In this document: positions 53,519 through 56,335 of the stretch, piece by piece
How the letters are laid out: every line of letters starts with the position of its first letter
Position numbering within the stretch: the first letter of the stretch is position 1
Assembly: GCA_947574215.1 (NCBI GenBank)
Contig: CANPIX010000003.1
Location: forward strand, 15,770-79,769
Length of the DNA stretch: 64,000 nucleotides
Source of the DNA: an uncultured Mycoplasmatota bacterium
GTDB lineage: Bacteria > Bacillota_I > Bacilli_A > RF39 > UBA660
Reading direction: 5' to 3'
Program-made: the position numbers and the translations under genes
The notes under the pieces: model-generated
What the model was told of the DNA's origin: nothing
Database searches by the model: none
Seen by the model: only the letters and a program-made list of their open reading frames with translations

Positions 53519-56335
53519 TTAATTTTTATCTTTTACTACAATATTAACAATTTTATTTGGAATTACAATTGTTTTGATAATCTCTTTTCCTTCTAAATAC
53601 TTTTTAACATTTTCTTCACTTAAAGCTTTTTCTTTAATTGCTTCTTCTTGATCTTCTATAGAAATCGTAATGGTTGCTCGAACCTTTCCATTTACTTGGA
53701 CCGCTATAGTTTTTTCACTATCAATGGTTTTTTCTTCATCGTATTGTGGCCAAGAAGATTCACAAATGGGAGCAAACCCTAAAGATTCATTTAATTCTTC
53801 GGTTGTATGAGGAGCAATTGGATTTAAAAGGGATAATAAGACTCTATATTCATCTTTGGTAATACTTTCTTTATCTTCGTAAGCGTTTGCAAGTATCATC
53901 AACGTAGAAACAGCGGTATTGTATGCCATTGTTTTTAAATCGTTAGTTACTTTTTTAATACTTTTATGAATTAAGGATTCTAAATCTTTTTGATAGCCTA
54001 TTTCTTCTCTTACTTTTTCTTTTAAACGAATCACTTTGTCAATAAAACGTTTACAACCACGTAAACTATCTGTACTCCAAGGAGCATCCATTTCATAATC
54101 TCCCATAAACATTTCGTATATGCGTAATGTATCTGCTCCATACTCACGCACAATATCATCTGGATTAATTACATTGCCACGAGACTTACTCATTTTTTCA
54201 TTATTAGAACCTAGTACCATACCATGGCTTACTCGAGTCCAAATCATTTCACTTTTTGGAACCAAACCTATATTGTGTAAAAATTGGACCCAAAATCTTG
54301 CGTAAAGTAAGTGTCGTGCGGTGTGTTCCATTCCACCATTGTACCAATCAACTCTTCCCCAGTAGTTCATGGCTTCTACTCCCGCAAATTCTTGAGTATT
54401 TTTAGGATCCATAAAACGTAAGAAATACCAAGACGAACCAGCCCAATTTGGCATGGTATCGGTTTCTCGTTTTGCTGGAGTACCACAATGTGGACAAGTG
54501 GTATTTACCCAATCACTTATTTTAGCCAATGGGCTTTCTCCATTATCTGTTGGCTCGTATTCTGCAACATCTGGAAGAAGTAGTGGCAAATCGTTTTCGT
54601 TCATTGGAACCCAACCACATTTTGGGCAATCCACCATAGGAATCGGTTCTCCCCAAAATCTTTGTCTTGAAAAAATCCAATCACGCATTTTATAATTGAC
54701 TTGCTTTTTACCACAACCTGTTTCTTCTAACCATGAAATCATTTTATCTATCGCTTCATCTTTATTTAATCCATCTAAAAAGTCAGAATGTATGTGAATG
54801 CCATCTCCTACCATAGCCCCTTCTTTTTTTGCATATTCAAAAGTTTTTAAATGAAGTTCATCTTTGATTTCGTTAAGAACCACTTTTTCTTCTACCCATT
54901 CCACATCGAAAACTTCATCTTGATCTAAGTGTTGTACATCTTTGTCATGATTTTTTAGTTTAAAAAATAAACCTGTGCATTCAATGGTAAAGTACTTATC
55001 TTTATTATGAGCGTAATAGTGATGATTGATTTTAGGAAGTTCACAAATAAATTCTACGTTTTTATAACCCGTTTCTTCAGCTATTTCACGGGTGGCACAA
55101 GTAAGTGCGTCTTCATTTTCTTTTCGAGTTCCACCAATAAATAAACGTCCCCCTAAACCATGCCAATTGATGGTTAAATATTTATCGTTTTCTTCATCAT
55201 AAACAATAGCCACGATAGAATCTTTTTTGGTTTCGTTTTCATGTGGAGTGCCTGTTACTTCTTCCAAAACTTGTTTGATAGTGATTCCAAACTTTTTGGC
55301 AAATTCATAATCTCTTTCATCGTGAGCGGGAACCGCCATAATTGCTCCTGTTCCATAAGAAGATAAAACATAATCACTTATATAAATAGGAATTCTTTCT
55401 TCATTTACAGGATTAATTGCATAGGATCCAATAAAGACTCCTGTTTTTTCTTTATTCAATTCCGTTCTTTCTAAATCATTTTTAAGAGAACAGGCATCAA
55501 TATAAGATTTTACTTCTTCTCTTTTTTCATCCGTAGTAATTTCGGCTACTAAAGTATGTTCTGGTGCAAGTACGCAATACGTTACACCAAATAGTGTATC
55601 AGGTCTTGTGGTGTAGACAGTAAACTCTTTATCCGTACCTTCTACTTTAAAACGAACTTCTGCTCCTGTAGATTTTCCAATCCAATTGATTTGTCCTAGT
55701 TTTACTTTAGAGGCAAAATTTGTATTTTCAAGTCCTTTAAGTAATTCTTCTGAATACTGACTCATACGAAGCATCCATTGTGATTTTTCTTTTTGTACGA
55801 CTTTAGTACCGCATCTTTCACAAACTCCACCCGCAGCGTCTTCATTGGATAGTACACTTTTACAGAGTGAACACCAATTTACAGGAATTTTTTCTTTATA
55901 CGCCATTCCATGTTTATAAAACTGTAAAAATTGCCACTGTGTCCATTTGTAATATTCTGGATCCGTTGTTGAAAATTCCCTAGACCAATCAAAAGAAAAA
56001 CCTAAAGATTCCATTTGTCCTTTAAAAGTTTTAATATTTTCTTTTACAGCGTCTTTTGGATGAATATGATTTTTTATAGCGTATTGTTCTGCTGGTGCCC
56101 CAAAAGCATCCCAGCCCATCGGAAACAATACGTTATATCCTTGCATACGCATCATTCTAGCCATTGCATCGTTGGCGGTATAACTCCTTACATGCCCAAC
56201 ATGAAGCCCAGCTCCTGAAGGATACGGAAATTCTACTAATATGTAATACGGATTTTTTCCTTCATTTTTTGTTTCAAACGTTTTGTGCTCTTTCCAATAC
56301 GTTTGCCATTTTTGTTCAATATTTTTAAAATTCAT
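53519..56335 (-). CDS. leuS: Leucyl-tRNA synthetase carrying an inserted Nudix-hydrolase domain
   Basis: Class I synthetase with HIGH (HVGH), the CP1 editing domain ([21 protein letters not shown]) and KMSKS. A segment of about 140 aa at residues ~358-500 contains a perfect Nudix box [24 protein letters not shown]. Confidence 0.85.
   Translation of the reverse strand: [938 protein letters not shown]

Follow-up and report, generated by a model that had tools for sequence, protein, structure and literature searches.

Introduction

Bacterial aminoacyl-tRNA synthetases (aaRSs) are usually viewed as architecturally conservative, extra catalytic domains being mainly a eukaryotic elaboration. They form diadenosine tetraphosphate (Ap4A) from aminoacyl-AMP and ATP. 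The nearest recognised analogue of the enzyme described here is the isoleucyl-tRNA synthetase (IleRS) with an N-acetyltransferase domain, a class Ia aaRS with an extra catalytic domain that is curated as a distinct architecture (NF040702, ileS_w_GNAT). In Nudix hydrolases, the specificity loop lies ~17 residues past the Nudix box (PMC5389931), and the diadenosine polyphosphate (ApnA) hydrolases are marked, in the summary of Dunn et al. (1999) given in PMC5389931, by a tyrosine ~16-18 residues past the box. Here we analysed a 64-kb stretch of DNA from an uncultured Mycoplasmatota bacterium (GCA_947574215.1, contig CANPIX010000003.1, positions 15,770 to 79,769; hereafter the window), in which the gene for leucyl-tRNA synthetase (LeuRS), leuS, encodes a complete Nudix domain within the CP1 editing domain. 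The LeuRS-Nudix architecture, already visible in precomputed Pfam annotations, was not found described in full-text searches of the open-access literature, and the term "tRNA synthetase" is absent from a 2017 survey of the Nudix clan (PMC5389931); the architecture is apparently undescribed.

Results

A complete Nudix domain inside the editing domain of LeuRS

A preliminary description of this DNA had reported a complete Nudix domain inserted into a 938-amino-acid (a.a.) LeuRS over positions 54838-55264, and this was borne out: the range corresponds to residues 358-499 of a single open reading frame (ORF) of that length, and the domain is in frame, scores above the Pfam cut-off, carries the full Nudix box and adopts the fold in an AlphaFold2 (AF2) model. 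The two peptides quoted there, [30 protein letters not shown] and [10 protein letters not shown], share the frame of the domain, which neither a stop codon nor a frameshift interrupts. With a gathering cut-off of 21.1, PF00293 matched the whole protein at 39.2 bits and the isolated insert at 43.3 bits (E 4.7e-11); the match spans profile positions 4-118 of 134. The Nudix box, which had been called a textbook one, conforms to G-x5-E-x7-R-E-U-x-E-E-x-G-U at every defined position of residues 402-424, and is the sole match to this pattern in the six frames of the window, with a rough chance expectation of ~1e-4.

The limits of the insert were set by alignment to Thermus thermophilus (Tt) LeuRS (1h3n), in which residue 362 stands opposite Tt 366 and residue 507 opposite Tt 376. 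Where the earlier figure was ~140 extra residues, the exact segment comprises the 144 residues 363-506, with a net gain of ~135 residues over the T. thermophilus loop. As to position, the insertion into LeuRS was correctly recognised, but it does not lie between CP1 and the next segment: it sits within the C-terminal part of CP1, in place of a 9-residue loop, and is followed by the final helix of CP1 and by the [10 protein letters not shown] strand. The base composition is continuous across the insert.

The surrounding synthetase has the attributes of a working enzyme. The bacterial LeuRS equivalog of NCBIfam, TIGR00396, matched with 961.1 bits (cut-off 548.4) in two stretches parted by the insert, and T. 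thermophilus LeuRS matched the protein with E 3e-224. The Pfam LeuRS editing domain (PF13603) covers residues 217-367 with 217 bits, and the remainder of the class I synthetase comes after the Nudix match. In two alignments, of 50 and 32 LeuRS sequences, which cover gut Bacilli and the candidate phyla radiation (CPR), invariance extends to H45, G47 and H48 of the HVGH version of the HIGH motif, T242, T243, R244, D246 and T247 of the threonine-rich editing motif, and H338, D339, R341 and D342 of HDERD; D342 is the counterpart of the essential editing Asp, D345 of E. coli. From the invariance of the HIGH and KMSKS motifs, of the editing Asp and of the threonine-rich motif, we read the synthetase as intact and predict that the host enzyme is a LeuRS of the bacterial type and fully functional. 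Minus its Nudix insert, it would be a compact enzyme of ~800 a.a., and the Thermus leucine-specific domain (Tt about 594-637) is without a counterpart in it, residues 715-723 being aligned there.

For structure prediction, the insert was modelled by AF2 with an alignment of 40 modules, and the full-length protein with an alignment of limited depth. The insert model had a predicted local distance difference test score (pLDDT) of 96.0 and a predicted template modelling score (pTM) of 0.89, with strands and helices in the order expected for Nudix. Foldseek returned 405 matches in the Protein Data Bank (PDB) at E<=1e-3, and the best 50 of the 405 were all Nudix proteins, at 14-22% identity. The top match was 2azw, the function of which is not known, and the highest template modelling score (TM-score), 0.75, was that to the Aquifex Ap4A hydrolase 3i7u. 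The full-length model reached a pLDDT of 86.8 and a pTM of 0.74, with local pLDDT values of 80-95 in the insert, 86-87 at the N-terminal junction and 73 in the C-terminal linker (501-510). The fold is thus intact and generically Nudix, and a chance motif outside such a fold, which the preliminary description had considered as an alternative, is ruled out by the pLDDT of 96 together with the 405 PDB matches.

The insert is conserved throughout a clade of gut Bacilli

Close relatives of the window protein fall into at least 120 clusters. Among the best 120 cluster representatives, identity was 74-100%, the length was 935-940 a.a. throughout and PF00293 was present in every one. A scan of one genome per species, built on the narrower gut-Bacilli alignment and covering the gut-Bacilli type of module only, found a relative of the insert encoded in at least 247 genomes. 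Each of the best 80 of these was a metagenome-assembled genome of gut origin (rabbit, ruminants, chicken, mouse or human); they were mostly labelled Bacilli, Tenericutes/Mycoplasmatota or Erysipelotrichaceae, an example among them being Candidatus Scybalousia, and a minority bore other labels such as Muribaculaceae, Clostridia, Lachnospiraceae or Roseburia. The name Candidatus Onthocola stercoravium (Bacilli incertae sedis) is attached to one close cluster. The fusion had been described as unusual, which stands insofar as the open-access literature is concerned and does not stand for its occurrence, as it is the rule in this large clade and common in CPR.

When 50 full-length orthologues were compared with the window protein, median identities were 69% for the N-terminal part, 64% for the insert and 68% for the C-terminal part. 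In unsaturated pairs, the insert had a ratio of nonsynonymous to synonymous substitution rates (dN/dS) of 0.05-0.13, as compared with 0.02-0.09 for the core; approximately six close pairs were informative, most orthologue pairs being saturated at synonymous sites. Judged by these values, the insert is under purifying selection and is conserved about as well as the LeuRS core.

These results bear on whether the fusion could be an artefact or a decaying remnant, be it through chimeric assembly, through a frameshift that left a pseudogene or through a Nudix-like motif arisen by chance. Databases do contain such artefacts. The 138-a.a. P0002 (62% identical), considered as a free-standing donor gene, is really a leuS fragment from a poor, frameshift-ridden assembly (GCA_009741595.1), in which leuS is broken into more than 10 ORFs, and the 244-a.a. 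P0001 is a probable chimera, in which a 1.5-kb contig joins a Nudix piece to unrelated sequence with a ZT_dimer domain; leuS fragments of this kind are able to pass for stand-alone Nudix genes. For the window protein, no point in favour of an artefact survives checking. The ORF is unbroken, the identical 938-a.a. protein (P0007) is held by public collections on two independent contigs, and the number of independent clusters and species genomes, the purifying selection and the confident fold model all speak against it, so that the assembly error or frameshift raised in the preliminary description fails as an explanation and the probability that we leave to an artefact is negligible.

In some orthologous loci (L005, L011, L013, L018 and L020 were compared), the insert is nearer to that of the window (66-69%) than the core is (47-61%), and other gut-Bacilli orthologues show the reverse, with 59-65% in the insert and 76-83% in the core. 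Insert and core may therefore have partly different histories, via recombination or transfer. Transfer of the whole leuS with its insert from CPR was considered and found no support: the window core is just 39-47% identical to CPR LeuRSs and is similarly close to Thermus LeuRS.

The module belongs to a Nudix subfamily associated with LeuRS

Among 1.84 billion representatives clustered at 50% identity, only 198 matched the insert at E<=1e-3. The best 150 of the 198 were sorted against both LeuRS halves of the window protein: 91 were LeuRSs or LeuRS fragments (24 of them full-length, 939-1330 a.a.), and 12 LeuRSs carried two or three Nudix modules. Modules were found at three or more LeuRS sites (A-C in Table 1), in 1-3 copies per protein, including in Candidatus Moranbacteria KKP58971.1. 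With a profile built from 40 modules, 188 proteins were retrieved; most of the best 120 of these were free-standing, at ~155-175 a.a., some of them on contigs of up to 742 kb. As their source names include Candidatus Paceibacterota, Parcubacteria and Nomurabacteria, the divergent relatives are assigned to CPR/Patescibacteria, a taxonomy that rests on this handful of names.

The residues expected to carry catalysis are shared across this range. G402, E417, E420, E421 and G423 of the box are invariant across gut-Bacilli and CPR LeuRS modules that are only about 25-30% identical. K445 and W480 are likewise invariant and are the subfamily's own marks, W480 being constant in all four alignments made. 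Two aromatic residues of the X-loop stand at +16/+17 from the Nudix box; in the gut-Bacilli clade, as in the window protein, they are Y440 and Y441. By these alignments, the module is a member of an unnamed Nudix subfamily tied to LeuRS. Because its catalytic glutamates are invariant, the domain is best read as an active Mg2+-dependent pyrophosphohydrolase that would be tethered to LeuRS.

In a neighbour-joining tree of the modules, drawn without support values, site-A, site-B and free-standing modules interleave, and the A and B copies of P0141 are sisters, which suggests repeated insertion and intragenic duplication. The proteins with two or three modules include CPR-type LeuRSs of 1100-1330 a.a. 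(P0131, P0134, P0148, P0142, P0144, P0163, P0205, P0261 and P0200), in which the copies stand in tandem at the CP1 entry, at the site used in the window or beside the second zinc knuckle.

Other enzymes are inserted into CPR LeuRSs as well: Ham1/inosine triphosphate pyrophosphatase (ITPase) domains in P0221 (984-1167, E 3e-58) and P0156 (247-378), Ser_hydrolase-type alpha/beta hydrolases in P0240 (258-442) and P0161 (606-757), and further Nudix types, with three Nudix stretches in P0169. In these CPR genomes, LeuRS seems to serve small hydrolases as a general platform. This raises the alternative that the module is a hitch-hiker, a sanitiser of nucleotide pools of the MutT or nucleoside triphosphate (NTP) pyrophosphatase type, unrelated to LeuRS chemistry, for which the loops of an essential, constitutively expressed gene would guarantee co-expression in streamlined genomes. 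The variety of the passengers fits this alternative, as do the three or more unrelated insertion sites and the variable copy number. The bias of the hosts argues against it: 91 of the best 150 matches are LeuRSs, and the few other hosts, described below, are aaRSs or RNase PH and not large proteins of other kinds that tolerate insertions.

Free-standing genes, other hosts and free-standing editing domains

Genomic context was read for nine free-standing genes, and four of these, in CPR genomes, lie upstream of leuS on the same strand. P0285 precedes a leuS of 807 a.a., P0159 ends 2 nt ahead of a leuS of 951 a.a., the stop codon of P0280 overlaps the start of a leuS of 806 a.a., and P0332 is parted from a leuS of 828 a.a. 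by one small gene; all four were counted as directly upstream. Three of the four neighbouring LeuRSs (806-828 a.a.) are without an insert, and the 951-a.a. one has a Nudix insert of its own. The four genes share one neighbour-joining clade, along with inserted modules. As P0280 and P0332 were picked from that clade, we count the arrangement as one conserved synteny and not as four independent events. Even so counted, the synteny of this subclade, with its overlapping start and stop codons in one case, weighs against a hitch-hiker unrelated to LeuRS.

Outside LeuRS, the module is rare and occurs in an IleRS-like protein, prolyl-tRNA synthetase (ProRS), RNase PH and a fusion of GNAT and M17-peptidase domains. 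The IleRS-like protein also has a His_Phos_1 insert beside the Nudix module, a second passenger of the kind that the hitch-hiker alternative expects. The ProRS module lies between the anticodon-binding and C-terminal domains, and that of RNase PH between its two domains; the peptidase fusion has the order GNAT-Nudix-Nudix-GNAT-M17, and a tandem Nudix-Nudix protein exists as well.

CP1 editing domains joined to a Nudix module are also found as free-standing proteins: P0137 (347 a.a.), P0130 (346 a.a.) and P0136. The duplication of CP1 and Nudix as one unit is a further point against a mere hitch-hiker. P0137 (L089 3002-4045) is encoded right after a Nudix-containing leuS, and is 347 a.a. long in 10 of the 12 cluster members. 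The catalytic residues of both of its domains are degenerate: Asn stands in place of the editing Asp, and Gly in place of the glutamate of RE in the Nudix box. P0136 (L090 6001-6864) is encoded in the complete genome of a Candidatus Aenigmatarchaeota (CP066684.1), a DPANN archaeon, which implies a cross-domain transfer of the CP1-Nudix unit.

These proteins suggest another alternative, in which the Nudix domain would bind or act on tRNA, for example in an RppH-like removal of a 5' pyrophosphate or a non-canonical cap, or would aid CP1 editing as an RNA binder. All of the identified hosts (LeuRS, IleRS-like, ProRS and RNase PH) bind the acceptor end of tRNA, the CP1-Nudix proteins include the catalytically degenerate P0137, and the decapping enzymes RppH, Dcp2 and AvrM14 are among the fold and sequence matches. 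However, the metal-binding glutamates that are invariant family-wide speak against a purely structural role, and RNA-directed Nudix enzymes match no better than other subfamilies. Nor is there an obvious substrate, as the 5' ends of tRNAs are monophosphates after RNase P cleavage. A tRNA-directed function consequently seems improbable to us.

Substrate evidence and the favoured function

Substrate assignment by homology was attempted with NCBIfam models, single-sequence and profile searches of the PDB, and Foldseek, and gave generic Nudix similarity only. All sequence and fold hallmarks of LeuRS and of the Nudix superfamily are present, and membership of any characterised Nudix subfamily was not demonstrable. 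Among the curated NCBIfam models, the RppH/NudH-type NF001936 (19.4 bits against 118) and NF001938 (18 against 116) and the YtkD model TIGR02705 (21.7 against 154) all stayed below their cut-offs.

The best characterised sequence match in the PDB was CT771, an asymmetric Ap4A hydrolase, with E 2.4e-4 for the single sequence and 2e-8 for the profile, and the lupin and Aquifex Ap4A hydrolases were among the top eight PDB matches of the profile. A further hint towards ApnA is the aromatic pair of the X-loop, placed where the ApnA hydrolases have their marker tyrosine. On this basis, Ap4A-type dinucleotides are mildly favoured as substrates over non-canonical NTPs, which are a close rival. The functions proposed in the preliminary description, namely Ap4A or alarmone turnover, turnover of nucleoside diphosphates linked to a moiety X (NDP-X) or a new editing activity, are weakly supported, the scores hardly setting the Ap4A hydrolases apart from other Nudix subfamilies.

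We therefore propose, with a probability of approximately 45%, that the domain is a tethered hydrolase of a soluble adenine-nucleotide by-product, the best guess being Ap4A or diadenosine triphosphate (Ap3A). In this model, a short CP1 surface loop would have been replaced by a catalytically competent Nudix pyrophosphohydrolase, belonging to a subfamily whose members are mostly attached to LeuRS, either in permissive loops or as a gene just upstream of leuS, in CPR/Patescibacteria and a large clade of uncultured gut Bacilli. The substrate would be a by-product of the aminoacylation chemistry, Ap4A or Ap3A arising from Leu-AMP and ATP or ADP. The enzyme would act by tethering to and co-expression with the synthetase; precise channelling is the less likely mode, because the module is found at several LeuRS sites and also in trans.

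Several observations weigh against this proposal. Family-wide, Phe and Tyr are equally frequent as the aromatic residue of the X-loop, and CPR members often have Phe. The scores of the Ap4A hydrolases are weak (E 1e-8 to 1e-4), NudB, mRNA-decapping, ADP-ribose and MutT-type enzymes score within approximately two orders of magnitude of them, and the two best profile matches, 2azw and 3fcm, are without known function. The insert comes near no curated NCBIfam Nudix cut-off, the best being NudB NF006961 with 22 bits against 103. Five of the nine free-standing members lie away from leuS, and the Ham1/ITPase, alpha/beta-hydrolase and other inserts of CPR LeuRSs would fit generic house-cleaning or hitch-hiking equally. 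The last two points favour a hitch-hiker, as does the presence of NudB/dATP pyrophosphohydrolase and MutT-type proteins among the PDB matches; set against the host bias, the leuS synteny and the joint duplication with CP1, we regard a hitch-hiker as possible but rather unlikely.

Neighbourhood of leuS in the window

Upstream of leuS lies an ORF of 137 a.a. (56332-56745, minus strand). Because it overlaps the leuS start by 4 nt, translational coupling of the two is possible. Neither this ORF nor the 165-a.a. ORF downstream of leuS (52806-53303, minus strand) has a Pfam match. Next comes a MurJ/Polysacc_synt gene (50339-52030), and a gene of this type is also found downstream of leuS in L089. 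Farther away, at 12598-22697 on the minus strand, a cluster of conjugation genes (Table 1) probably represents an integrative conjugative element, as judged from its gene content. Two long ORFs on the same strand, of 692 a.a. (20619-22697) and 935 a.a. (33353-36160), gave no Pfam match at E<=1e-5.

Table 1 Coordinates of the features discussed; positions are those of the window unless another frame is named
Feature	Position	Strand	Basis
leuS, bacterial-type LeuRS, 938 a.a.	53519..56335, stop codon included	-	one unbroken ORF
HIGH motif, HVGH, residues 45-48, synthetic site	56192..56203	-	translation
TTRPDT, threonine-rich motif of the CP1 editing site, residues 242-247	55595..55612	-	translation
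HDERD, CP1 editing site, residues 338-342	55310..55324	-	translation
Inserted segment, residues 363-506, in place of the 9-residue CP1 loop (Tt 367-375)	54818..55249	-	alignment to 1h3n
Nudix domain, PF00293 limits, residues 372-486	54878..55222	-	Pfam, AF2, Foldseek
Nudix box [23 protein letters not shown], residues 402-424, metal-binding E417, E420, E421	55064..55132	-	pattern match
X-loop motif HHYYAHNK, subfamily-specific, residues 438-445	55001..55024	-	alignments, translation
W480, subfamily tryptophan	54896..54898	-	alignments, translation
KMSKS motif, residues 714-718	54182..54196	-	translation; conserved in both LeuRS alignments
VirD4/TraG-type coupling protein	12598-14850	-	Pfam
Protein with C39-like peptidase domain	15713-17938	-	Pfam
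TraG/VirB4-like P-loop ATPase	17962-19746	-	Pfam
LeuRS site A (site used in the window)	after residue 357-362		
LeuRS site B, entry to CP1	around residues 204-238		
LeuRS site C, beside the second zinc knuckle	after roughly residue 612-622		
Loci of the leuS-adjacent subclade	L085 6001-6492 and 7071-9494; JGI 3300071358 contigs		
Non-LeuRS and tandem proteins	P0184, P0241, P0269, P0186, P0157		

Discussion

The window encodes an apparently active second hydrolase within the proofreading domain of an essential synthetase, kept by strong selection in hundreds of uncultured species, and the ultra-small CPR bacteria have LeuRSs with up to three related Nudix modules as well as ITPase and esterase-like domains. 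If Ap4A-type by-products are indeed destroyed by it, this would be, to our knowledge, the first synthetase with its own clean-up enzyme for the alarmone that it makes, and the debated link between the aaRS side reaction and dinucleotide signalling would become directly testable on one recombinant protein. If the module is a hitch-hiker only, it would show how streamlined genomes pack housekeeping enzymes into the permissive loops of essential genes. In either case, the architecture confuses automatic annotation, since NCBI gives such proteins merely the name "class I tRNA ligase family protein".

A wider version of our proposal is that the module is a dedicated partner of editing aaRSs, providing a third hydrolytic activity of LeuRS that would destroy a nucleotide made by the synthetase (ApnA or another adenylate-derived one), and at the same time a portable cassette that moves between a leuS-adjacent gene and the loops of LeuRS, IleRS, ProRS and RNase PH in CPR, gut Bacilli and a DPANN archaeon. 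As a whole, we hold this version to be doubtful and put it forward as a speculation.

Compared with known systems, the window protein shares with the bacterial-type LeuRSs of solved structure (1H3N/2BYT; E. coli 4AQ7/4ARC) the Rossmann fold, the HIGH/KMSKS and CP1 motifs, and the anticodon-binding and C-terminal domains, and differs from them in the insert; 18 sequences of solved LeuRSs matched at E<=1e-50, and not one of them covers it. The N-acetyltransferase-containing IleRS of NF040702 has another host and another passenger, and the window protein reaches 62 bits against its cut-off of 1999, via the synthetase core only. The house-cleaning NTP pyrophosphatases, MutT-type Nudix enzymes and Ham1/RdgB ITPases, are small hydrolases of aberrant nucleotides, and Ham1 domains are inserted in CPR LeuRSs together with the Nudix module described here; unlike them, the window module is without a specific sequence membership. 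The MutT/nudix protein 2AZW of Enterococcus faecalis ranks first in both the Foldseek (E 2.3e-8, TM-score 0.73) and the profile search (E 3.4e-10), and has a YFYSNH-like X-loop segment, but it is a free-standing protein of 148 a.a. with 18% identity, from a structural-genomics entry without functional information. The Nudix Ap4A hydrolases (C. trachomatis CT771/NudH 4ILQ, A. aeolicus 3I7U and lupin 1F3Y) share the fold, the full box and an X-loop aromatic residue ~17 past the box, with profile E values of 2e-8 to 9e-8 and a TM-score of 0.75 to 3I7U, but just 16-21% identity; unlike these enzymes, the subfamily found in the window has the invariant K445 and W480 and an aaRS as its host.

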